A DNA stretch of 42,137 nt from Chloroflexota bacterium (GCA_005880445.1 VBGJ01000148.1:1-42137), one strand, 5' to 3'; shown: positions 21,458-31,169, counted from the first letter of the stretch. Program-made: numbers and translations. Notes: generated by a model from the letters alone, not told the origin.

Positions 21458-21649
21458 ATGCGCTTCCCCCTAGGTCGTAAAGGCCTTGTCGCCGCCGGCG
21501 CCGCCGCAGGTGCGCTCGCCTTCTGGAAAGTCCGGTCTCGTCGCCGTGAGCAGGAGGATCGTGAGTGGGAGGCCGAGGTGGCCGGCGCCGTCGATGAGGG
21601 CCGCTCGGCCGCCGATGCAGCCACAACCGGGGAGAGTGGAAGCGGCTAG
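21458..21649 (+). CDS. Small single-TM hypothetical protein
   Basis: 63 aa; AGGAG SD upstream; hydrophobic GLVAAGAAAGALAFW followed by a basic then acidic helix. Confidence 0.65.
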   Translation: MRFPLGRKGLVAAGAAAGALAFWKVRSRRREQEDREWEAEVAGAVDEGRSAADAATTGESGSG

Positions 21650-21659
21650 CCGGGCGCAC

Positions 21660-21686
21660 GGTTTCGGCGTGGATTCGATGGGGTAT
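21660..21686 (+). promoter_or_regulatory. SigB/SigF-type promoter GGTTT-N16-GGGTAT
   Basis: GTTT at 21661-21664 and GGGTAT at 21681-21686 match the Bacillus SigB / mycobacterial SigF consensus, directly upstream of the anti-sigma/sigma pair. Confidence 0.75.
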
Positions 21687-21698
21687 TCCCCATCTGAG

Positions 21699-22148
21699 AT
21701 GGCCGAGATCTCCGAGCTCCGTCTGCCCGCGGATCGCGCGTACGTCGTGGTCGCCAAGCGGGCCGCGGGCGCGATCGGCTCGGTGGCGGGCTTTGATCTC
21801 GACGCCGTCGACGATCTGACGATCGCGGTGGCCCAGGCGTTCGAGAACGCGATCAGCTGCCTGGAACGGTCGGGCTTCCTGACCGGGCAGGTGCGCATCT
21901 CGTTCAAGCACGACCGGCGTGGCCTCGACGTCCGGGTCCGGTCGACGGTGAGCCACGACGCCGAGGTTGGAGCCCGCGAGCGGGTTCAGGCGGCCGCTGC
22001 CGTGGCCACCCAGGCGGACGCCGAGGTGGCGGCCGCCACCGATCTCGCGCTGCGCCTGATGGGGCTCTTCGTCGATGACAGCAGCTATCGCGTCGACGAG
22101 CGCACGGGAGGGCTGCGCGTTCGGCTGACCAAGTACCGCGTCTCGTGA
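21699..22148 (+). CDS. RsbW/SpoIIAB-like anti-sigma factor with degenerate ATP-binding boxes
   Basis: ELRLPA...FDLDAVDDLTIAVAQAFENAI...LMGLFVDD...VRLTKY follows the RsbW layout; overlaps the sigma factor start. ATG 21699 lies downstream of the predicted promoter. Confidence 0.8.
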   Translation: MAEISELRLPADRAYVVVAKRAAGAIGSVAGFDLDAVDDLTIAVAQAFENAISCLERSGFLTGQVRISFKHDRRGLDVRVRSTVSHDAEVGARERVQAAAAVATQADAEVAAATDLALRLMGLFVDDSSYRVDERTGGLRVRLTKYRVS

Positions 22149-22963
22149 CGCCGGCGCCGCGGCGCGGCGGCGCGGCGACGCGGGAGCGCACGCTGGCCAA
22201 GCCGGCGCCGAGCGCGGAACGTGACGAGACGCAGCGTCTGCTCCGCGAGTACCGGACCACCCGCGACCCTCGCGTCCGTGAGCGCCTGGTCGAGCTGAAC
22301 AGCGATCTCGTCCACTACATCGCCCGCCGCTTTGCCAACCGAGGGGAGCCGCTCGAGGACATCGAGCAGGTGGGCTTCGTCGGTCTGATCCAGGCGATCG
22401 AGCGATTCGATCCCTCGCTGGAGAACGAGTTCAGCACGTTCGCCACGCCGACCATCGCCGGGGAGATCCGCCGGTACTTCCGCGACCGCTCCTGGGCGGT
22501 GCGCGTGCCGCGACGGCTGCAGGAGAACCTGATCCGGGTCAACGGCGCCTCGCAGCAGCTGCAGCACGAGCTCGGCCGGGCACCGTCGATCCCGGAGATC
22601 GCGGCTCGCCTCGGCATCGAGCCGGACGAGGTGCTCGCCGCGTTGGAGGTGTCGCCGGCGCAGCACACGGTCTCCCTGGAGTCGACGGGCAGCTCGCTCG
22701 GAGAGGATACGGCGACGCTCGGAGAGCGGCTGGGTCGAGAAGACGAGAATCTGGAGCGCGTCGAAGCGCAGGAGATGCTCGAGCGGGTGATGTCGCATCT
22801 CACGCCGCGTGAGCGCAAGATCCTCGCCCTCCGTTTCGTCGAGCAGCTTCCCCAGACCGAGGTGGCCAAGCGGCTGGGCATCTCCCAGATGCACGTCTCC
22901 CGTCTGCAGCGGGCCGCGGTGGAACACCTGCGCAGGGAGTTCGGCGACCAGGCTCCGGCGTGA
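22145..22963 (+). CDS. SigB/SigF/SigG family RNA polymerase sigma factor
   Basis: RGEPLEDIEQVG..GLIQAIERFDP, FSTFATPTIAGEIRRYFRD.SWAVRVPRRLQE, Q.EVAKRLGISQMHVSRL. Confidence 0.95.
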   Translation: MTPAPRRGGAATRERTLAKPAPSAERDETQRLLREYRTTRDPRVRERLVELNSDLVHYIARRFANRGEPLEDIEQVGFVGLIQAIERFDPSLENEFSTFATPTIAGEIRRYFRDRSWAVRVPRRLQENLIRVNGASQQLQHELGRAPSIPEIAARLGIEPDEVLAALEVSPAQHTVSLESTGSSLGEDTATLGERLGREDENLERVEAQEMLERVMSHLTPRERKILALRFVEQLPQTEVAKRLGISQMHVSRLQRAAVEHLRREFGDQAPA

Positions 22964-23041: not shown

Positions 23042-25639
23042 ATGCGCAGCCAAGACATCCGGGAGCGTTTCCTGCGCTTCTTCGAGGAGCGTGGGCACCA
23101 TCGCCTTCCCAGCGAGTCGCTCATACCCCACGACGATCAGTCGCTTCTCTTCACCGTGGCCGGCATGGTCCCGCTCAAGCCGTACATCTCAGGGGCGCGG
23201 AGGCCGCCGTCGCCGCGGCTGGTGTCGTGCCAGAAATGCTTTCGAGGAGCCGGCCTGAAATACGACGACATCTCGTCCGTCGGCGACACCACCCGCAACT
23301 CGTTCTTCGAGATGCTCGGCAACTGGTCGATCGGCGACTATTTCAAAGAGGGAGCCATCGACTACGCGTGGGAGCTCGCCACCGGCGAGTTCGGCCTTGA
23401 TCCGTCACGGATCTGGGTCAGCGTGTACCCGGACGACACGACCGCGGAGCTGCTCTGGACCGACAAGATCGGCGTGCCGCGGGAACGCGTCGCCAGGCTC
23501 ACCGACAACTGGTGGGCGGCCGGCCCGACCGGACCCTGCGGCTACGACAGCGAGATGTACTGGGATTGGGGACCACCATGCTCGTGCGGCCGCGCCGCGT
23601 GCACCCTCCAGGACGAATGCAACGGCGACCGCTGGGTCGAGTTCTGGAATCTCGTGTTCATGGAATTCGACCAGCAGGAAGACGGGTCGCGACCCCTGCT
23701 CCCGAAGCCGACGGTGGACACCGGCATGGGGCTCGAACGCTTCGTCGCCGTCCTGCAGGGCAAGCGCAGCATCTATGACACGGATCTCTTCGTGCCGCTC
23801 GTCACCGGCTTTCGTGGCCGCGCCCCGGACGGTCCTGAGACGCCGGAGCGCATCCGGGCGTTCAACGTGCTCGCCGACCACCTGCGCGGCGCCGCATTCC
23901 TGATCGCGGCCGGCGTCCTGCCCTCCAACGAGGGGCGCGGCTACGTGCTCCGCCGCCTGGTGCGCAGGGCAGCCATCCGCGCCCGGAGCGTGCAGGCTCG
24001 CGGCGGGCTGGCCGCCGGCACGCGCGAGTTGGTGGCGGTCATGGGGCCGGTGTACCCGGAGCTGGTCGAGCACGACGACCTGATCGAGGAGACGCTGCGG
24101 GCCGAGGAGGAGACGTTTGCCCGGACCGTCGAGGCTGCGTCGAAACGGTTCGAGGAGATCATCGGCGCCGCGGCCGGGCGCATCGCAGGCGATGACGCGT
24201 TTCGCCTCTACGATACCTTCGGCTTGCCGATCGAGTTAACCATCGAGATGGCAGCCGAGCGCGGGGCGACGGTGGACACCGATGGCTTCCGCCTCGCCAT
24301 GGAAGGACAGCGGTCCCAGAGCCGAAAGGCGCACGAGCGTGTGGGCTTCGGTGGCCTGACCTTGCCCGCGACGCGTTTTGTCGGCTACGAGACGCTGGAG
24401 GCCGAGGCCCGCGTGCTTCGCATCGGGGTGCCCGACGAGCTCGCCGTGCTGCCGGCCGGGCAGACCGGCGCGGTACTTCTCGACGTGAGCCCCTTCTACG
24501 CCGAGGCGGGGGGGCAGATCGGCGACACCGGCCAGCTGCGGTGGGACGACGGGCGGGCCGCGGTGCTCGACACCACGTACGTGCCCGGCACCGATGCGCG
24601 CCTGCACGCGGTGCGCGTCGAGACCGGCGAGCTTCGCCAGGGGGCGACCGTGCACGCGAGCGTTGACGCGGCCCGCCGGGCGCAGATCGCGCGACACCAC
24701 TCGGCGACGCATCTGCTCAACCGCGCGCTCCGCGAAGTGCTCGGTGACAGGGTGGTGCAGCGCGGTTCGTTGGTGGGCCCCGAGCACACGACGTTCGATT
24801 TCTCCTTTGCTCGCGCGCTGTCGGCGGAGGAGGTCGCAGAGATCGAGCACCTCGTCAACGACGCGGTGCGTCGCGATCTGCCGCGCACGGTCAGCGAGAT
24901 GTCGCTTGCGGAGGCTCGCGCCAGCGGGGCTGTTGCGCTGATCGACGAGAAGTACGCAGAGGTGGTCCGCGTGGTGGATTTCGGTGGCTGGTCGCGCGAG
25001 CTGTGTGGCGGCACGCACGTCGCGCGAACCGGAGAGCTTGGCGCGGCCATCGTCGTCTCGGAGTCGAGCATCGGTCAGGGGATACGGCGCATAGAGCTGG
25101 TGGCAGGCGAGGCGGCCGAGCGTCGCTGGCGCGACACGGGTGCGGCGCTCCAGGCGACGGCGCGCGCGTTGCGCGCACGCCTGGAAGAGGTTCCCGAGCG
25201 GGTTGCGCTGCTCCAGGAGCAGAACCGGCGCCTCGCGCGCGACGTCGAAGCTGCCCGGCGCAGCGCCGGCTCTGGAGGGGGGGTGCAGAGCGTGGAGCTG
25301 GAAGACATCTCCGGCATCCAGCTGGCGCATGCAACACTCGACGCCGGCGGCGCCGACGGCGTGCGCGACATCGCGGACCGCCTGTTTGCGGAGCGGCTCA
25401 ACGGCGATGGCGTCGCCGTCGTGCTTGGCGGTTCGACGCTCGCCGTGAAGGTTGGCGGACGTGCGCTCGACGCCGGCATCGACGCCGGCCAGCTCGTGCG
25501 GGCCGCGTCCGAGATCACGGGGGCGCGCGGCGGAGGCCGCAAGGACTTCGCCAGCGGTGGGGTGGGGGACCCGGCGAAGCGCGATGCCGCGCTCGCGTCG
25601 ATCCGAGAGGCGGTGGCGCGCGCCGCAAAGGCGCCCTGA
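23042..25639 (+). CDS. alaS: Alanine--tRNA ligase
   Basis: LLFTVAGM, FFEMLGNWS.GDYFK, GPCG, VDTGMGLER, FRLYDTFG, HSATHLL and ELCGGTH editing motifs, GGG C-terminal domain. Confidence 0.98.
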   Translation: MRSQDIRERFLRFFEERGHHRLPSESLIPHDDQSLLFTVAGMVPLKPYISGARRPPSPRLVSCQKCFRGAGLKYDDISSVGDTTRNSFFEMLGNWSIGDYFKEGAIDYAWELATGEFGLDPSRIWVSVYPDDTTAELLWTDKIGVPRERVARLTDNWWAAGPTGPCGYDSEMYWDWGPPCSCGRAACTLQDECNGDRWVEFWNLVFMEFDQQEDGSRPLLPKPTVDTGMGLERFVAVLQGKRSIYDTDLFVPLVTGFRGRAPDGPETPERIRAFNVLADHLRGAAFLIAAGVLPSNEGRGYVLRRLVRRAAIRARSVQARGGLAAGTRELVAVMGPVYPELVEHDDLIEETLRAEEETFARTVEAASKRFEEIIGAAAGRIAGDDAFRLYDTFGLPIELTIEMAAERGATVDTDGFRLAMEGQRSQSRKAHERVGFGGLTLPATRFVGYETLEAEARVLRIGVPDELAVLPAGQTGAVLLDVSPFYAEAGGQIGDTGQLRWDDGRAAVLDTTYVPGTDARLHAVRVETGELRQGATVHASVDAARRAQIARHHSATHLLNRALREVLGDRVVQRGSLVGPEHTTFDFSFARALSAEEVAEIEHLVNDAVRRDLPRTVSEMSLAEARASGAVALIDEKYAEVVRVVDFGGWSRELCGGTHVARTGELGAAIVVSESSIGQGIRRIELVAGEAAERRWRDTGAALQATARALRARLEEVPERVALLQEQNRRLARDVEAARRSAGSGGGVQSVELEDISGIQLAHATLDAGGADGVRDIADRLFAERLNGDGVAVVLGGSTLAVKVGGRALDAGIDAGQLVRAASEITGARGGGRKDFASGGVGDPAKRDAALASIREAVARAAKAP

Positions 25640-26904
25640 TGTCGAAACGCAAGTTCCAATTGCTGCGGCGCCGCGAAGAGTTCAAGACGCACTACACCGT
25701 GCTCGACATCGGCACGGAGTTCGTCAAAGCGCTGGTGGTGAAGCGCGAGGACGACAAGGGCATCGTGCTCGGCGTGGGCAAGGTGCGTCAGGCGGTGATG
25801 CACATGCAGGCGGGAGCGGTCGCGGACATCCAATCGGTGATCGACAACTGCGACCGTGCGCTCACCGAGGCGGAGGACATGTGCGAGACCATCCCGGGCC
25901 AGGCGGTGATCGGCATCGCCGGTGAGCAGGTGCGCGGCTTCAGCACGACGATGACCATGCCGCGCCCGCAGCCGCAGGCACGCATCACGCAGGCGGACAT
26001 CGCCACCGCGCTGCAGGCGGTGCAGCGCCGCGCATTGCGCGAGGCGGTTCGGCAGATGTCTCAGGATCTCGGCGTGTCGGAGATCAATGTGAAGCTGGTG
26101 CACAGCACGATCACGCACGTGCGCATCGACGGCTACGGCGTGAGCAACCCCGTCGACTTTCAGGGCCACATCCTCGAGATCACCGTTTTCAACACCTTCG
26201 CACCGCTCACGCACATCGGCGCTCTGCAGACGATCGCACAGGAGCTCGATCTCGAGTTGGTGGCGACCGTGGCCGAACCGTATGCGCTCGCTCGCGGCTG
26301 CGCCAGCGAGGAGACGCAGGAGCTCGGCGGCATCTTCGTCGACATTGGCGGCGGCACCACCGACATCGCGCTGGTGCGCAACGGCGGGATCGAATCCACG
26401 CGGATGTTTGCGCTGGGAGGTCGTTCGTTCACCAAGCGTCTGGCCACCGATCTTTCGATGCCGCTCGAGGAGGCCGAGCGCTTCAAACTCGCGCACGCGG
26501 AGCACCGTCTCGCAACCGATCAGAGCGTGATGGCGCATCGCAGCGTGACGCCCACGGCCGAGGTGCTCGCCCAGGGCGTCGCGCTCAGCCTGGAGGAGCT
26601 GGCCGGTCAGGATCCGCTGCCGCCCGCCCTCTTCCTCGCGGGAGGCGGCGCCGCGCTGCCCGAGGTGGTCGACCAGCTCCGCGCGATCGACTGGACCGCG
26701 ACCGTGCCCTTCAACCACACACCGTCGGTCAAGCTGCTCGGCCCCGACGACGTGCGCGGCGTGTACGACACCACCGGGCTTCTGGTCGGATCGCAAGACG
26801 TGACGCCGATGGGCCTGGCACGCCACGCGATCACGCTGGAAGATGAGGCCGACGAGCCACTCGGCGGTCTCATGCGCCGGGTGCTCAAGACGATGAGGGT
26901 CTGA
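25639..26904 (+). CDS. FtsA-like actin-fold ATPase (orphan paralog, outside the dcw cluster)
   Basis: LDIGTEFVKA, AEPYALA, VDIGGGTTD, GGRSFT..LA, EAERFK, LAGGGAALP, TPMGLA; 1C-like IDG.V.NP..F.G..LE; C-terminal amphipathic LGGLMRRVLKTMRV; TGATG overlaps at both ends. Confidence 0.85.
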   Translation: MSKRKFQLLRRREEFKTHYTVLDIGTEFVKALVVKREDDKGIVLGVGKVRQAVMHMQAGAVADIQSVIDNCDRALTEAEDMCETIPGQAVIGIAGEQVRGFSTTMTMPRPQPQARITQADIATALQAVQRRALREAVRQMSQDLGVSEINVKLVHSTITHVRIDGYGVSNPVDFQGHILEITVFNTFAPLTHIGALQTIAQELDLELVATVAEPYALARGCASEETQELGGIFVDIGGGTTDIALVRNGGIESTRMFALGGRSFTKRLATDLSMPLEEAERFKLAHAEHRLATDQSVMAHRSVTPTAEVLAQGVALSLEELAGQDPLPPALFLAGGGAALPEVVDQLRAIDWTATVPFNHTPSVKLLGPDDVRGVYDTTGLLVGSQDVTPMGLARHAITLEDEADEPLGGLMRRVLKTMRV

Positions 26905-27608
26905 TGCCGGTTGTAGTACTCGCCCGCACCGACGATGAGATCGCCGACCTGATCGACCTGGTTCGATCTGCGAAGGATCCCGAGGTCGGCCTCGTACTTC
27001 CGGCCGGAAACAAGGCGTTCCAGACGCCGCTGAATGCCCGCCTGCTGGGGCAGTTCAGCCGGCAGAACGGCCGCCGCACTGCGATCGTCAGTGATGACGC
27101 CCGCATCCAAGCGCTGGCTCGGGCCAACGGTTTCGGCGTCTACACCTCGGTACCGGCATTCGAGCGTGGCATCGAGGCCGCGGTGCCCCGCGAACCGTCG
27201 TACGCCGGGTCGCGCGCTGTCGACGGCGCGCCCGCGGTCACCCGCGCGCCGCTCGGGGCTGGTGCATGGACGGCCGCGGCGACGCTGCAGCCCCCACCCA
27301 CGCGAGCCGTTGCGCCGCCGCCTCCACCACCGCCCGGCCCGGCGGCGCCCACGCGTCCCCACCCCGACACGCGGGGCCCGGCCTTTCCTCCTCACGATGC
27401 GCGGCAATCAGAGGCAAAGGGCCCCGACCGGCGCCGGCCGCTCTATTACGCGGCCGCGGCGGTCGCGGTGGTCGGCCTGCTGCTGTTCTTCGTGTTGGCG
27501 CCGAGCGCAAAGGTCACCTGGAGCAGGCGAACGCCACCCAGGGCTTCACCGCCACTCCTACAGGGCAGAAAACGATCGCGGCAGCAACGTCCGGTGGCTC
27601 TGAGATGA
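26904..27608 (+). CDS. N-terminal part of a bitopic membrane protein (cytoplasmic alpha/beta domain, Pro-rich linker, TM); likely frameshifted near 27517
   Basis: DDEIADLIDLVR...VLP..N..F.TPLNARLL...G.RTAIVSDD..IQALA...GF domain, poly-Pro linker, RRR then TM (YYAAAAVAVVGLLLFFVLAP), SAKVT, after which the sequence looks non-native. Confidence 0.7.
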   Translation: MPVVVLARTDDEIADLIDLVRSAKDPEVGLVLPAGNKAFQTPLNARLLGQFSRQNGRRTAIVSDDARIQALARANGFGVYTSVPAFERGIEAAVPREPSYAGSRAVDGAPAVTRAPLGAGAWTAAATLQPPPTRAVAPPPPPPPGPAAPTRPHPDTRGPAFPPHDARQSEAKGPDRRRPLYYAAAAVAVVGLLLFFVLAPSAKVTWSRRTPPRASPPLLQGRKRSRQQRPVALR

Positions 27609-28585
27609 TCTCGACCACCGCGCCCGGCGGAGCGCAGTTTCCGCTGCAGCCGGGCGACACATTCCAGACCGCGGATCACGTCCTAACGTTTGTGGTCACG
27701 CAGGCGACGTACATCTGCATCGGGCCCAACGGCGCACAGCCACCGCCGAGCTCATGCCAGAACATGGGCCAGCCGGCGCCGCCGAACGCGTCGGTCCCGA
27801 TCAAGGATGCAACCCCTGAGGCAAAGGGGAATCTCCCCGCCAACACGCTCACCTACTGGCCGCAGAATCCGTGTCAGCAGCAGCCCGGGCAACCGCCGCC
27901 GGCGTGCAGTCCCGATGAGTTCTCCGTCACCAATCCGCAGCCGACCACCGGCGGGGCGGATCAGAAGCAGGTGACTGTCGCCAGTGCATCGGACGTCAAC
28001 AGCTGGAATCAGCAGGTGACGCAGATCGAAAACACGCTGACGAATCAGGTGACCCAGCAGATGCAGAGCGAGGCGGCCGGCAAGACTTTTGCCGTCGATC
28101 CGTCGGGAGCGGGCAAGACCATCGCCTTTACGGTGAGCCCACAGCTGCCGAATATAGGTGCGCAGTTCTCCCCCGCGCAGGTCACGGTCGCCGTCGCGGC
28201 CAAGGTTGCGGTGTACAGCCCCGCCGACGTGCGAAGAGATCTGATGGCGGACCTGCAAGCGCAGGTGTCACAGGGTGATCAGCTCGCCCCGGGCAAGCTC
28301 AGCATGCAACCGTGTCAGGTGACGCAGGCCTCGGACGACGGCACCGTCATCCTCAGCTGCGCGGCGACCGACTTCAGCCAGCCGATCATCAACCTGACCG
28401 GGCTCAAGTCGCAGCTCGCCGGCAAGAATCCCGGCGATGCCAACAAGATCATCCAGAGCGGAGTGGACAAAGTCCAGGACGTGAAGGTGTCAGAGTTCCC
28501 GTTCTCGCTCTTCTACCTGCCCTTCTTCAGCTCTCGCATCGAGATCGACGAGAACTTCGTACCCCAACCGTCTTCGTCCTCGTGA
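27605..28585 (+). CDS. C-terminal part with baseplate J/gp47-like domain (coding probably begins near 27518 in this frame)
   Basis: KGNLPANTLT...SVTNPQPTTGGAD resembles the baseplate J motif; Q/T/N-rich with paired Cys; ends PFSLFYLPFFSSRIEI; ATG 27605 overlaps the upstream ORF stop (ATGA). Confidence 0.65.
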   Translation: MISTTAPGGAQFPLQPGDTFQTADHVLTFVVTQATYICIGPNGAQPPPSSCQNMGQPAPPNASVPIKDATPEAKGNLPANTLTYWPQNPCQQQPGQPPPACSPDEFSVTNPQPTTGGADQKQVTVASASDVNSWNQQVTQIENTLTNQVTQQMQSEAAGKTFAVDPSGAGKTIAFTVSPQLPNIGAQFSPAQVTVAVAAKVAVYSPADVRRDLMADLQAQVSQGDQLAPGKLSMQPCQVTQASDDGTVILSCAATDFSQPIINLTGLKSQLAGKNPGDANKIIQSGVDKVQDVKVSEFPFSLFYLPFFSSRIEIDENFVPQPSSSS

Positions 28586-29049
28586 CGCGTGCGCCGTTGC
28601 GCGCGACGCCGGGCTCGGTGATCGGGATCGACGCGGGCTCCGTGCGTGTCGGCGTTGCCGCGAGTGATCCCACGCGCACGATCGCCACGCCGGTCGCGAC
28701 CCTCGAACGAACGTCGAACGATTTCTGGGCGCGTCTGCAACGCGAGATCCATGCGCGCGCGGCCACGTCGATCGTGGTGGGGCTGCCGCGGCGCCTCGAC
28801 GGCAGCGAGGGCGAGGCCGCAGCCGGTGCGCGCGAGCTCGCCGCCGATGTCGGGCACCACACCGGCTTGGCAGTTGAGCTCTGGGACGAGCGATTCACCA
28901 CGGCCCAAGCGGAACGGCAGATGATCGCCTCCGGAACGCGCCGGCGCCGGCGCCGGCAGAGGATCGACGCGGTCGCGGCCACGCTGATGCTGCAGAGCTG
29001 GCTCGACGCAGCGGTGGAGGGCGCGAGAGGACGCTCAGAACCGTCGTGA
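28582..29049 (+). CDS. ruvX: YqgF/RuvX family nuclease (pre-16S rRNA nuclease / Holliday junction resolvase-like)
   Basis: IGIDAGSVRVGVAASDP, IVVGLP..LDG, WDERFTT, IDAVAA..MLQSWLD; GTG overlaps the upstream stop. Confidence 0.93.
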   Translation: MTRAPLRATPGSVIGIDAGSVRVGVAASDPTRTIATPVATLERTSNDFWARLQREIHARAATSIVVGLPRRLDGSEGEAAAGARELAADVGHHTGLAVELWDERFTTAQAERQMIASGTRRRRRRQRIDAVAATLMLQSWLDAAVEGARGRSEPS

Positions 29050-29873
29050 CGCGTCGGTTCTGCCTGATCGGAGAGCGTGCCGGCACATCACTCAGCCCGC
29101 TGATGCACAACGCGGCGTTCCAAGCGCGCGGCATCGACGCGGTGTACGAGGGGTTCGATGTCGCACCGGAGCAACTGCCCCATGTGCTCGCGCAGCTCCG
29201 GTCCGGCGTCTACTCGGGCTGCAACGTCACCATGCCGTACAAGGCGGCGGTGGTAGCGGCGTGCGACTGGGTGGAGGGCGACGCAGAGCTGCTTGGCGTG
29301 GTGAACGCGATCACGGTCGAACAGGGAAAGCTGATCGGACAGAACACGGATGCCGAGGGTTTCGAGCTGGCGCTGAGTGTCCAAGGGTTGTGGCCGGTCG
29401 CCGGCTCCACCGCTCTGATCCTGGGCGCCGGCGGTGCCGCCGCGGCGGTCGCTCTGGCGCTGTTGCGCGCGCCAGCCGCTCGCATGGTGATCGCGGCGCG
29501 CCGCACAGAACCGGCGGTCCATCTCGCGGAACGCGTTGCGGCCGGTGCGCGAGTCGATGTGCTCCCCTGGGAAAGGGTGGCAGTGCAGCCCGCTGCGGAG
29601 GGCGCCGACGTTGTCGTCAACGCGACCCCCGCGGGTGTCGCGGAGCTCCCGCTGAGCGTTCACCGTCTCCCACTCTCGTGTACGGTCGCCGACGTGCGCT
29701 ACCGTCCGCGACCCGTCGACCTGGTGGCCGCCGCCACCGACGCCGGGCTTCGTGCCTGCGACGGCCTGGAGATGCTGCTGCAGCAGGGCATGCTCTGCTT
29801 CGAGCGCTGGACGGGCGAGGCGCCCCCGTGGGAGGACGCCCGGGCGGCTCTGCACACGGCAGCCGGCGCGTGA
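29046..29873 (+). CDS. aroE: Shikimate dehydrogenase
   Basis: SLSPLMHNAAF, NVTMPYK, NTDAEGF, LGAGGAA, VNATP, DGLEMLLQQG. Confidence 0.95.
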   Translation: MTRRFCLIGERAGTSLSPLMHNAAFQARGIDAVYEGFDVAPEQLPHVLAQLRSGVYSGCNVTMPYKAAVVAACDWVEGDAELLGVVNAITVEQGKLIGQNTDAEGFELALSVQGLWPVAGSTALILGAGGAAAAVALALLRAPAARMVIAARRTEPAVHLAERVAAGARVDVLPWERVAVQPAAEGADVVVNATPAGVAELPLSVHRLPLSCTVADVRYRPRPVDLVAAATDAGLRACDGLEMLLQQGMLCFERWTGEAPPWEDARAALHTAAGA

Positions 29874-30622
29874 ACCCGCTGTTGGTGGTGGGCGCGGCCG
29901 CCGCAGGCGCGGTCGTCGGCCTGGGGTCGGGCCGGCTGGCGGTGCAGCTGGAGCGGATCGAGCGGCTCCGTGAGGAGGAGGACGAGGAACGGCTCGAGTA
30001 CGAGCGCGATGTCGCGGCCGCAGCGGCGACGACACGCGAAGCCGGCGATGATCCACCGGCGGCCGAGCCATGGATCGGGGAGCGCTACGGGTGGACGTGG
30101 CTGGAGCGTGTGCTGTCACCCGTGCTCACGGCGGCCGGATTCACCATCTTCGTCGCGCACGGCAGCGCAGGTGTGGGATTGCTCATCCAACTGGTGTGGC
30201 TCGCGGTGTTCGTCCACATCGTGGCCTTCGACCTGAAGCATCGCCTCATCCTCAATCGACTCACATATCCCGCGATCCTCATCGCGCTGGCGGTGTCGCC
30301 GGTGTCCGCGGGATTGAACCTCGAGCGCGCCGCGATCGGCTGTGCCGGCGTCGCGCTGTTCTTCTTTTTGCAGAACGTACTCTCACGCGGCAGCATCGGT
30401 CTTGGCGACGCGAAATTGGGAGCGCTCGTCGGCGCGGTGACCGGCGCGGGACCTGATCCGGCCCACATCGGCGCGGTCTACGCCGTGATCTACGCAATTC
30501 TTCTCGGTGGAGCGACCGCGCTCGTGCTGCTCGTCCTGCGCGTGCGCCGGCTGAAAGATCCGATTCCATATGGTCCGTTTCTTTGCGCAGGCGCGGCCAT
30601 CATTCTGTACCAAGGTCCATAG
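29870..30622 (+). CDS. A24 family prepilin peptidase-like membrane aspartyl protease
   Basis: Both catalytic Asp regions (FDLKHRLI, GLGDAKL) and IPYGPFL; multi-TM; no N-terminal CxxC zinc domain. Confidence 0.85.
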   Translation: MNPLLVVGAAAAGAVVGLGSGRLAVQLERIERLREEEDEERLEYERDVAAAAATTREAGDDPPAAEPWIGERYGWTWLERVLSPVLTAAGFTIFVAHGSAGVGLLIQLVWLAVFVHIVAFDLKHRLILNRLTYPAILIALAVSPVSAGLNLERAAIGCAGVALFFFLQNVLSRGSIGLGDAKLGALVGAVTGAGPDPAHIGAVYAVIYAILLGGATALVLLVLRVRRLKDPIPYGPFLCAGAAIILYQGP

Positions 30623-30647
30623 CAGGTTCGAGATTCGAGGAAGCACG

Positions 30648-31169
30648 ATGTCCGCACAGTTGATGCCGGGAGAGCGCCCCCTTCTCGTGGCGCGCCAGCA
30701 CTGGTCCGTGGTCGCGCCGCCGTTGGGGGCGGCGCTGGCCGCGCTCGTCATCGGCATCGTCATCCTGGTGCTGATCCCCGCCGCGATAGCAGGATTCGGC
30801 ACGGGTGGAGTCAAACTGACCGCCGGCATCCTGCTCGGGGTGTTCGCGTTCGGATGGGCGGGTCTCGTATACCTCCGCTGGCGCTTCCAGAAATACACTC
30901 TGACCGATCGGCGCATCGTGCTCGAACGTGGCGTGCTGTCGCGCTTGACGGAGTCGATATCGCTTGATCGCATCCAGAACACAGTGATCCGGAGGCCGCT
31001 TGGCGACCGGGTCATCGGCGCGGGTCACATCGACATCGAGTCAGCGGGCCGGGACGGGACCGAGACCCTGCACCGCATCCCCGACGCGGAGACGTTCTAC
31101 GCAACCCTGCTGCAGGCGATCGACTCGCTTCGCCTGGGGCCGGCGCACGCGATGAGCCAGGGGATCTGA
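30648..31169 (+). CDS. Membrane-anchored bacterial PH (bPH_2-like) domain protein
   Basis: LMPGE..L..ARQHW, two TMs, Y.LTDRRIV.ERGVLSR....ISLDRIQN......LGDRVIGAGHI.IESAG. Confidence 0.8.
   Translation: MSAQLMPGERPLLVARQHWSVVAPPLGAALAALVIGIVILVLIPAAIAGFGTGGVKLTAGILLGVFAFGWAGLVYLRWRFQKYTLTDRRIVLERGVLSRLTESISLDRIQNTVIRRPLGDRVIGAGHIDIESAGRDGTETLHRIPDAETFYATLLQAIDSLRLGPAHAMSQGI

Follow-up and report, generated by a model that had tools for sequence, protein, structure and literature searches.

An FtsA Paralog and a Baseplate-J-Like Membrane Protein Encoded as a Conserved Gene Pair Between alaS and ruvX in Soil Dormibacteria

Introduction

Why should a gene for an FtsA-like ATPase, separated from any division gene, be joined to a gene for a membrane protein resembling a phage baseplate component, and why between two housekeeping genes? 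The question is raised by a DNA stretch of 42,137 nucleotides (hereafter the window; GCA_005880445.1, VBGJ01000148.1:1-42137) from a soil Dormibacteria genome, where a pair consisting of an FtsA paralog (gene 1) and a membrane-protein gene (gene 2) lies between alaS and ruvX. All coordinates are those of the window, and all features described are on the + strand. Literature searches found no paper on the pair or on either protein, and passages of PMC10608941, bioRxiv 2024.12.19.629468 and PMC10633639 are concerned with other matters than the pair.

Organization of the Locus

The upstream flank, alaS for alanyl-tRNA synthetase (23042..25639), is an 865-aa ORF identified from its sequence and from the upstream position of alaS in related loci. 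Its TGA overlaps the ATG of gene 1 (TGATG, 25637-25641), and the same type of overlap joins gene 1 to gene 2 (26902-26906), as described in the first-pass annotation, which had also named both flanks correctly. The end of gene 2 and ruvX (28582..29049; Pfam RuvX, 133.7 bits) share a GTGA overlap at 28582-28585, where the GTG of ruvX overlaps the stop of gene 2. Next come aroE for shikimate dehydrogenase (29046..29873; Pfam Shikimate_dh_N, 84.2 bits) and, three genes downstream of the pair, a Peptidase_A24 gene (29870-30622). The position downstream of ruvX is occupied by aroE here and by mltG in most relatives, and no match to YceG/MltG was found in this genome (G000). The neighbors examined, namely alaS, ruvX, aroE, the A24 peptidase, a bPH_2 protein and a sigma factor, are of housekeeping type and include no other phage or contractile-injection (CIS) gene, as had been noted from the sequence, and PADLOC gave zero matches.

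Gene 1 Is an FtsA Paralog

Gene 1 (25639..26904) encodes an FtsA-like actin-fold ATPase of 421 aa. It passes the Pfam FtsA model PF14450 (55.7 bits, cut-off 31.8) and stays below the cut-off of the FtsA equivalog TIGR01174 (114-115.4 bits, cut-off 175.85), while among PDB entries the closest to it in sequence is FtsA 7q6f (E 7.9e-14). The actin-fold motifs, the 1C-like segment and the C-terminal amphipathic helix that had been read in this gene were all located. The nucleotide motifs are DIGTE (aa 23-27), DIGGGTTD (235-242) and AGGGAALP (334-341). The 1C/SHS2-like insert at aa 95-183 (25921..26187) aligns with profile positions 1-75 of 79 of SHS2_FTSA PF02491, at E 8.5e-4 and with 20.1 bits, below the cut-off of 25.4. 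The helix, a putative membrane-targeting sequence (26857..26901; PLGGLMRRVLKTMRV), has L408, M412 and V421 invariant across 13 orthologues. By analogy with FtsA, this helix would bind the membrane and the protein may form polymers; since both the ATP-binding motifs and the helix are kept, it is probably located at the membrane, on the cytoplasmic side.

There is no sign of decay in gene 1, which is 96% identical to its nearest relative. It ranks among the best conserved proteins of the carrier genomes, with identities from 58 to 96% across the 120 best matches, named Dormibacteria and Chloroflexi. Among orthologues the mean column identity is 75% and every motif residue is invariant.

A canonical ftsA, with 402.4 bits to TIGR01174, adjoins ftsZ on C198, a different contig from that of gene 1, and the genome gives no further ftsZ match. 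Because the canonical ftsA-ftsZ sit on another contig, gene 1 is an FtsA paralog, and its earlier description as an orphan FtsA-like ATPase with no ftsZ nearby holds. The phylogeny that the first-pass annotation had proposed points the same way. In a quick IQ-TREE analysis of 13 gene 1 orthologues and 16 canonical FtsAs, the orthologues form one clade apart from the latter (SH-aLRT 97), with a very long stem of 4.79 and short branches of their own (at most 0.32), and the tree branches indicate that gene 1 is slower-evolving than canonical FtsA.

Placement of gene 1 relative to PilM comes from HMM scores only, and these bear on a reading in which the two proteins would act like PilM and PilN, as an alignment pair in a type IV pilus or competence machine. 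Gene 1 does score just above the cut-off of PilM_2 PF11104 (29.8 bits, cut-off 27), and the A24 family member downstream is a prepilin peptidase. However, with TIGR01175 for pilM it reaches 36.7 bits where 133 are required, much less than with the FtsA models, and no pilM passes the cut-off in the genome (85.7% complete). In terrabacteria, an A24 peptidase commonly lies between aroE and aroC, with no connection to pili. With a folded 90-aa domain instead of a short PilN-type peptide at the N-terminus of gene 2, and a baseplate-like ectodomain unlike PilN or PilO (see below), such a pilus pair is very improbable.

Gene 2 Encodes a Probable Bitopic Protein Interrupted in the Window

Once a gap at 27518/27519 is allowed for, intact gene 2 is most likely a single bitopic protein of about 592 aa, in the order of a 90-aa cytoplasmic alpha/beta domain, a Pro-rich linker, one transmembrane (TM) helix and an ectodomain; these elements, with the GNL...GG.D motif, had been recognized beforehand, and all are present in the gene 2 region. 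The N-domain (26904..27188) is modeled by AlphaFold2 as a small alpha/beta fold of four strands and four helices (pLDDT 92.9). A fold search with it returned nothing in the PDB at E<=0.001, and gave only weak likenesses (TM 0.5-0.56), namely to alpha/beta folds of the STAS, RsbS and receiver types. The linker (27189..27440) appears disordered from its sequence, and the equivalent segment in a homologue model has pLDDT <50. The TM helix (27441..27503; LYYAAAAVAVVGLLLFFVLAP) is helical in the homologue model and is preceded by RRR, so the positive-inside rule would put the N-terminus inside the cell. The Baseplate-J-like ectodomain (27519..28585, stop at 28583-28585) lies in a second frame and is 70% identical over 360 aa to the intact homologue P0028. 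It carries the family hallmark motif GNLPANTL ... VTNPQPTTGGAD (27827..27961), the columns of which do not vary across the family alignment (N320, V321, V351, N353, G359 and G360 in P0004 numbering).

Gene 2 is thus split between two frames within the window. The first frame, with the N-domain, linker and TM helix, covers 26904-27608 and stops after a 30-aa out-of-frame tail; the second, open from 27266, is homologous to the ectodomain from about 27519 to 28585. Relative to intact homologues, the first ~32 residues of the ectodomain are missing here. In relatives, gene 2 is one ORF of 540-820 aa, and a single ORF is found in 62 of 72 fully covered related loci. The first-pass annotation, which had treated gene 2 as one gene, missed the break that puts it in two frames here.

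The break point (27518..27519), with ~97 bases missing and the frame shifted, was recognized from Logan contigs of four runs together with the single-ORF homologues. In all four of these public soil runs, from four studies, there is extra sequence exactly at 27518/27519, and no contig bridges the window junction. Contigs over 27000-27518 continue with 89-115 unlike letters in each of the four runs; contigs starting at 27519, where seen, have 38 unlike letters ahead in X1 and X2 and 15 in X3. The extra length is thus 89 + 38 - 30 = ~97 nt, that is 3n+1, and its first codons (ITLAGTPLSV) and last (QGDHVVTS) match the homologue segment missing from the window. Elsewhere the break flanks are 99-100% identical to the run contigs, and the four runs include the best-covering one (0.91 of the words). 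The exact 28-nt window junction was also not found in metagenome contigs, in a search without positive control that says little.

Most likely, the split of gene 2 is an assembly defect, and this is the lesson for the window; the reading is drawn from contigs, which drop rare variants, and a minority deletion allele may occur in the source population. Or gene 2 could be a genuine pseudogene in a module that is decaying here, a ~97-nt deletion having cost the ectodomain its two leading strands and put the rest out of frame. The break is seen in the window sequence itself, translation of the C-terminal part might in principle start again at an ATGA overlap (27605-27608), and the frame is also broken in 10 of the 72 related loci. 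These ten, however, are mostly from MFD-labelled bins, perhaps long-read assemblies prone to indel errors, and the unbridged junction with extra sequence on both sides in four of four runs, the undecayed gene 1 and the near-identical flanks make a genuine pseudogene quite improbable. A programmed frameshift was also considered and rejected: relatives are one-framed, and the window is simply missing sequence.

The Ectodomain Resembles Baseplate J Proteins

The best structural matches to the ectodomain are baseplate J/gp47 wedge proteins. The fold was searched via the model of a 61%-identical homologue, in which the ectodomain blocks are mostly at pLDDT >90. In the PDB, Foldseek gave 14 matches at E<=0.001, and 12 of those listed are baseplate proteins; the top match is the Mu gp47 chain 9ki1_H (E 5.5e-7). 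Taken as a whole, the homologue model has low TM-scores against baseplate structures (global values of 0.13-0.17 by query), and good superposition is limited to a core of ~125 residues, at an rmsd of ~4 A. In BFVD there are 49 matches at E<=0.001, of which the named ones are baseplate or virion structural proteins except for one CenC-like carbohydrate-binding entry.

Sequence comparison gives a consistent picture through relatives. PF04865 is passed by 10 of 14 diverse family members (best E 2.9e-10), the family profile matches Mu gp47 and phi812 at 2.2e-4, and the hallmark motif aligns with the GNxG...GGAD region of Mu gp47. The window's own ectodomain (P0003) reaches no Pfam or PHROG baseplate model, P0004 is likewise unmatched by PF04865, and the gene 2 pieces of the window give nothing over threshold in Pfam, NCBIfam, PHROGs and PADLOC. 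Because the window ectodomain falls below Pfam and PHROG thresholds, the link to baseplate proteins runs through relatives and the homologue model; fold and, by that route, sequence agree with the baseplate J resemblance first proposed from the motif.

This likeness, together with that of gene 1 to FtsA, might suggest that the locus is a prophage or contractile-injection remnant, or that gene 1 is simply the division FtsA. Both are extremely improbable. PF04865 has no match anywhere in this assembly, the neighbors examined carry no second gene of such a system, and the position is fixed between housekeeping genes across the phylum; the genome also has a canonical ftsA, next to ftsZ, elsewhere.

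Predicted Contact of Gene 1 With the Gene 2 N-Domain

A complex model of gene 1 with the gene 2 N-domain, another analysis proposed at first pass, predicts a contact with an ipSAE of 0.81, against 0.25 for the best control. In calibration, scores this high occurred in 58 of 80 solved complexes and in two of 110 mismatched pairs; ipSAE is the model's own confidence, and these counts hold only roughly because own alignments were used for the complex model. At least 92% of contacts agree between runs, with a partner pLDDT of at least 89. In gene-1-linked copies of the N-domain, conservation at the interface is 0.75 versus 0.62 elsewhere. Furthermore, linked and stand-alone N-domains have a common consensus residue at 5 of 19 interface positions versus 28 of 68 positions elsewhere. 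The model thus supports binding of the gene 2 N-domain by gene 1, and the predicted interface is a directly testable handle.

Linkage and Distribution of the Two Genes

Among 151 genomes sampled in the phylum, gene 2 is directly downstream in all 42 with a gene 1 orthologue. It also follows gene 1 in 79 of 80 fetched loci, the sole miss ending 167 nt past gene 1; these 80 were gathered with the gene 1 alignment and are nearly all Dormibacteria, whereas the wider taxa come from the genome sampling. Thus the expected co-conservation of the pair is found. Coupling of the two genes, as the first-pass annotation had worded it, holds in one direction: gene 1 is always with gene 2, but members of the gene 2 family are also found in this slot without gene 1. 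The family has a match in 74 sampled genomes, in 32 of which a gene 1 orthologue is missing; stand-alone gene-2-like proteins occupy the alaS-ruvX slot in other Chloroflexota, and no gene-1-like ORF is present within 7 kb in the eight such loci examined. Therefore the ectodomain protein does not strictly need gene 1. The family is very large: its profile has 5,885 matches among cluster representatives at E<=1e-30, and 11,817 when the limit is relaxed to E<=1e-10, in a set of 1.84 billion. The first-pass annotation had named similar pairs in Patescibacteria and Chloroflexota; those of Chloroflexota are found here, and CPR is a lead only.

The same ectodomain is also found right after a TM helix in fusions to Ser/Thr kinases (P0200, P0201), and in an Atlas cluster where Pkinase is present in 100% and Baseplate_J in 50% of members. 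Such fusions, and the presence of the ectodomain protein without gene 1, would suit a module that is chiefly a sensor, in which the ectodomain recognizes a ligand of the wall or the surface and the N-domain passes the signal to the ATPase (to the kinase in the fused relatives), rather than a structural scaffold. No ligand-binding site has been identified, however, and baseplate J proteins are known as structural oligomers. The ATP-binding motifs of gene 1, its putative membrane-targeting helix and a polymerization presumed by analogy with FtsA fit a scaffold and argue against a sensor. A mainly sensory module is therefore unlikely, while sensor and scaffold are not exclusive.

A Possible Envelope Module

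We consider it probable that a conserved and previously undescribed envelope module of two genes occupies the alaS-ruvX slot, that the pair is its copy in Dormibacteria, and that it works in the following manner. The FtsA-like ATPase would bind the cytoplasmic domain of gene 2, as in the complex model, and would thereby position or cluster the baseplate-like ectodomain at the cell surface; the pair probably links the cell interior to the envelope. The module may serve envelope growth, division or surface organization and not injection, because of the fixed ruvX-mltG neighborhood, the Ser/Thr-kinase fusions and the lack of a phage gene nearby; any function named here is conjectural throughout. 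The 'domesticated' origin and the filaments anchoring an external oligomer, both put forward in the first-pass annotation, are likewise conjectural, model support extending to the contact of gene 1 with the N-domain only.

A bolder and tentative possibility is an ancient envelope machine common to Chloroflexota (including Dormibacteria) and CPR, in which the actin-like ATPase organizes a surface ring or lattice of membrane-anchored baseplate-wedge homologues. If true, this would be a cellular use, or even a cellular source, of the phage baseplate J fold, and the ring or lattice might contribute to wall growth, mark division sites or attach cells to one another. The carriers are mostly uncultured soil bacteria and, by leads, ultrasmall CPR too, and hardly anything is known of their cell biology. 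A second actin at the membrane, paired with a trans-membrane protein of its own, would add a new component to the bacterial cytoskeleton; a phage baseplate fold would moreover have a core role in the cell, which is rare.

Comparison With Known Systems

Gene 1 is most similar to FtsA (TIGR01174, PF14450; solved as 7q6f and 1e4f), its best sequence match among solved structures. Both are actin-fold proteins that carry the phosphate-1, phosphate-2 and adenosine motifs and have a C-terminal amphipathic helix; in gene 1 a putative 1C/SHS2-like insert, scoring below the PF02491 cut-off, takes the place of subdomain 1B. Unlike FtsA, gene 1 scores below the equivalog cut-off, is away from ftsZ and belongs to its own clade on a long stem, and its orthologues have a bitopic partner directly downstream (42/42 genomes, 79/80 loci).

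As a pair, the predicted arrangement resembles FtsA-FtsN, PilM-PilN and MreB-RodZ, all pairs of an actin-like protein and a bitopic partner: a membrane-associated actin-fold protein would hold a single-pass protein by its cytoplasmic end, with most of the partner lying outside. FtsN and PilN offer short peptides, whereas gene 2 offers a folded 90-aa alpha/beta domain; in being folded, this domain comes closest to RodZ, although an HTH is lacking. None of FtsN, PilN and RodZ has a baseplate J homologue outside.

With the wedge proteins of the baseplate J/Mu gp47/T4 gp6 type (PF04865), gene 2 shares the ectodomain core fold and the GN(V/L)xA...N(P)x..GG(A)D motif, and its family profile and Foldseek matches are wedge proteins of Mu (gp47), phi812, phiCD508 and diffocin. 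In contrast to these, gene 2 is TM-anchored with a cytoplasmic domain and chromosomal in a fixed housekeeping locus, and no sheath, tube, spike or other wedge genes are near it. Closer comparisons are found within Chloroflexota: the stand-alone members share the N-domain, TM helix, ectodomain and alaS-ruvX slot but lack gene 1 within 7 kb, and the kinase-fused members share the TM helix and ectodomain, with a Ser/Thr kinase in place of the gene 2 N-domain.

Organization of the locus

The window represents contig C161 of a 2.2-Mb MAG (251 contigs, 85.7% complete, ~69% G+C), which belongs to Candidatus Dormibacteria going by the names of its closest proteins and loci. alaS ends at 25639, where its TGA has one base in common with the ATG of gene 1 (25639–26904, 421 aa), and the same one-base overlap joins the TGA of gene 1 to the next ORF, which starts with ATG at 26904; therefore, the gene coordinates and the TGATG overlaps described in the first-pass annotation are correct. 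The stop codon of gene 2 (28583–28585) overlaps the GTG of ruvX, and ruvX and aroE follow at 28582–29873, with the stop of ruvX overlapping the start of aroE. The genes around the pair are housekeeping genes, and no defence model matched.

Several other features of the neighbourhood were recorded. Just 5′ of alaS, at 21642–22963, an HATPase_c_2 anti-sigma-type kinase gene (34.7 bits) extends into the 5′ end of a gene for a group-3-like sigma-70 factor, and the two look like a regulatory pair of the partner-switching type. Between aroE and aroC (29870–31169) are genes for a Peptidase_A24 protein (prepilin peptidase family) and a bPH_2 membrane protein; no pilM scoring above the cut-off was found in the assembly. 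Furthermore, aroE lies directly 3′ of ruvX, with no mltG (YceG) between them, in the window's own genome (G000) and in five close relatives (G022, G013, G002, G004, and G024; 79–92% complete, four genera). PF02618 (YceG/MltG) has no match in G000 or in any of these five, one of which (G002) is flagged unpublished. In the phylum sample, the 15 remaining genomes of the class all have a match, mostly immediately 3′ of ruvX. MltG may have been lost or replaced in this sub-lineage.

Gene 1 is an FtsA paralog

Gene 1 matches Pfam FtsA at 55.7 bits (cut-off 31.8), and only marginally PilM_2 and MreB_Mbl. Its SHS2_FTSA match, aligned over aa 95–183, stays under the cut-off (20.1 vs. 25.4 bits), as do its scores with the NCBIfam FtsA equivalog (115.4 bits, cut-off 175.85) and NCBIfam pilM (36.7 bits, cut-off 133). 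By sequence, the nearest solved structure is Vibrio maritimus FtsA (7q6f, E = 7.9e-14). A canonical ftsA (402 bits) adjoins ftsZ (442 bits) on contig C198 of the same genome, and gene 1 is therefore a paralog. A quick ML tree was built, without PilM, from 13 gene 1 orthologues and 16 canonical FtsAs of this phylum, with one MreB-like sequence as outgroup. The orthologues group together in a single clade (SH-aLRT 97), the stem of which measures 4.79 changes per column; branches inside the clade are at most 0.32, and terminal branches of the canonical FtsAs reach 1.14. Mean column identity among the 13 orthologues is 75%, and DIGTE, DIGGGTTD, the GGG of the adenosine motif and residues of the C-terminal helix are invariant.

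Gene 2 is interrupted by a probable assembly gap

The frame opening at 26904 holds the N-domain, the Pro-rich linker and the TM helix and stops at 27608, its last 30 residues resembling no homologue, while the ectodomain lies in another frame that is open to 28585. In the nearest intact relatives, gene 2 is a single ORF (569 aa in L006, 568 aa in L007, and 589 aa in P0028), and ~32 residues after "APSAK" in these proteins are missing from the window. Window positions 27000–28200 were compared with the Logan contigs of four soil runs, each taken from a different study. In all four, the contig over 27000–27518 (27340–27518 in run X3) runs on with 89–115 letters that differ from the window, and in three of them the contig from 27519 is preceded by differing letters (38 in X1, 38 in X2, and 15 in X3); the fourth, X8, covers the upstream side of the break and has no contig from 27519. 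The extra sequence opens with codons for ITLAGTPLSV in the upstream frame and, before 27519, closes in the downstream frame with QGDHVVTS and a single base that begins a V codon, and both readings agree with the homologue segment that the window lacks. Taking a k-1 overlap of 30, the missing length is ~97 nt (89 + 38 - 30). As this is 3n+1, the insert would bring both frames together in a single ORF, ~592 aa long by arithmetic estimate.

Probably, then, the split of gene 2 is an assembly gap or defect. This reading comes from contigs; less probably, a minority deletion allele at 27518/27519, real in the source population, is behind the split. Among the contigs of the four soil runs, none bridges the junction as it stands in the window. 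In 72 fully covered related loci, gene 2 is a single ORF in 62 (540–820 aa, median 580) and broken in 10 (L019, L020, L028, L030, L040, L047, L048, L049, L055, and L094), mostly in MFD-labelled bins. Indel errors of long reads, and not pseudogene formation, possibly account for these broken frames.

Baseplate J-like ectodomain and breadth of the gene 2 family

An AlphaFold2 model was made from a 27-row alignment for P0004, a 61%-identical homologue. Its mean pLDDT is 83.5, exceeding 90 in the N-domain and most of the ectodomain; the linker is disordered (pLDDT <50 at residues 94–159), and a helix is found at the TM position. In a Foldseek search of PDB, the model had 14 matches at E ≤ 0.001, and 12 of those listed are baseplate proteins, led by Mu gp47 (chain 9ki1_H, 5.5e-7) and including those of phi812, cyanophage A-1(L), diffocin, phiCD508, XM1, Pa193, and Milano. 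Global TM-scores by query are low (0.13–0.17), the local alignments to baseplate structures spanning ~125 columns at an rmsd of ~4 Å. Against viral models there were 49 matches at E ≤ 0.001. Of those with a name, three (Bacillus phage G Gp188, a virion structural and packaging protein, and a row for a CenC-like carbohydrate-binding protein) fall outside the baseplate J, gp47 and wedge proteins that make up the rest. Neither the window's ectodomain piece nor P0004 reaches PF04865 (Baseplate_J) itself; it is matched by 10 of 14 diverse family members (best E = 2.9e-10), and the family profile matches Mu gp47 and a phi812 baseplate component at 2.2e-4 across the GNV...GGAD region. The N-domain modelled alone has four strands and four helices (pLDDT 92.9), and no PDB fold matched it at E ≤ 0.001.

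The gene 2 family has many members: its profile matched 5,885 representatives at E ≤ 1e-30, a number that rises to 11,817 at E ≤ 1e-10 and to 16,883 at E ≤ 1e-3, and the best 150 of these matches are all full length. Atlas look-alike clusters, which serve as leads only, occur most often in Chloroflexota, Saccharimonadota, Minisyncoccota, and Absconditibacteriota. There are also relatives in which a Ser/Thr kinase replaces the N-domain. For example, P0200, P0201, and an Atlas cluster are Chloroflexota Ser/Thr protein kinases with this same baseplate J-like ectodomain directly after the TM helix, a place taken by PASTA-type sensor domains in other kinases. In one taxonomic family of the Chloroflexota, f23 (G139:C35, G148:C1, G114:C1, G130:C11, G069:C10, and G183:C19), the homologue is ~900 aa long (open frames of 904–973 aa), and a second or third gene 2-like copy is present elsewhere in the genome, which suggests an expansion of the family there.

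Linkage of the two genes is one-sided

With the ectodomain as query, matches were found in 39 of 41 related genomes, and the N-domain follows gene 1 in 79 of the 80 loci fetched with gene 1, the exception ending 167 nt past gene 1. In an even sample of the phylum (151 genomes), a full-length gene 1 orthologue, defined by at least 190 bits on a profile where canonical FtsAs score at most 76, occurs in 42 genomes: 15 of 16 in the window's class and 27 of 135 in others. All 42 have a gene 2 match directly downstream on the same strand. These counts include genomes flagged unpublished (G002, G027, G032, and G036 in the 41-genome search; G077 and G181 in the phylum sample).

The gene 2 family is present in 74 of the 151 genomes, 32 of which have no gene 1 orthologue, a contig end accounting for the absence in one (G164). 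Eight of the 32 loci were inspected, and each encodes a protein of 485–523 aa that shares the N-domain, TM helix, and ectodomain, with no gene 1-like ORF within 7 kb. The order is alaS, gene 2-like, ruvX in seven; L116 has an MFS-type gene in place of alaS upstream. In five, judged by eye from ORF ends, an MltG-like ORF follows ruvX. Therefore, the membrane protein appears to be the more widespread occupant of the alaS–ruvX slot, and gene 1 to have been added to it in some of the phylum. The coupling claimed in the first-pass annotation thus holds from the side of gene 1 and is one-sided, because gene 2 relatives are also found without it.

Predicted contact between gene 1 and the N-domain

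Gene 1 and residues 1–95 of gene 2 were modelled as a complex, which gave an ipSAE of 0.81, compared with 0.25 for the best of three controls. Of 80 solved complexes, 58 attained this level, as did 2 of 110 mismatched pairs; these counts are rough because the complex model used self-made alignments. Contacts agree by at least 92% among runs, and partner pLDDT is at least 89. The predicted interface involves 257–267 and 305–320 of gene 1, plus 57–58, 96, and 143–145, and residues 12–21, 37–51, and 67 of the N-domain. In gene 1, 257–267 is a loop and 305–320 a helix; E12, D15, Q40, R46, and L47 are among the predicted contact residues of the N-domain. These two gene 1 segments would belong to subdomain IIB, judging from motif order, since both lie between the phosphate-2 and adenosine motifs. 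In gene 1-linked copies, conservation of the N-domain is 0.75 at interface positions vs. 0.62 in the rest of the domain, and linked and stand-alone copies have a common consensus residue at 5 of 19 interface positions vs. 28 of 68 elsewhere. FtsA is not known from any solved complex with such a folded domain, so that it seems unlikely that the prediction reproduces a memorized structure. The model supports binding of gene 1 to the N-domain.

Nature of the module

Most likely, the pair is a trans-membrane module, in which an actin-fold ATPase at the inner membrane face engages a bitopic protein by its cytoplasmic end. The first-pass annotation had proposed an orphan FtsA-like ATPase coupled to a baseplate J-like bitopic protein; the finding is real and its reading largely right, apart from the split of gene 2 by a probable assembly gap and the one-sidedness of the coupling. 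Some defining features of a division FtsA, of PilM, and of a phage baseplate gene set proved lacking on testing, which places the module outside all three. A role in envelope, division or surface organization may be inferred from the fixed link to ruvX–mltG, the kinase fusions, and the surface location.

Full-text literature searches found no publication on the pair, and passages of PMC10608941, bioRxiv 2024.12.19.629468, and PMC10633639 deal with other subjects; the main text of PMC10633639, a Tn-seq study of Southlakia epibionticum, mentions neither FtsA nor baseplate. As far as these searches reach, the module is undescribed in print and represents a variant of the theme of actin plus bitopic partner. 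Like FtsA–FtsN, PilM–PilN, and MreB–RodZ, it combines an actin-fold ATPase with the cytoplasmic end of a bitopic partner; in this module, however, that cytoplasmic end is a folded domain and the ectodomain is a homologue of baseplate J.
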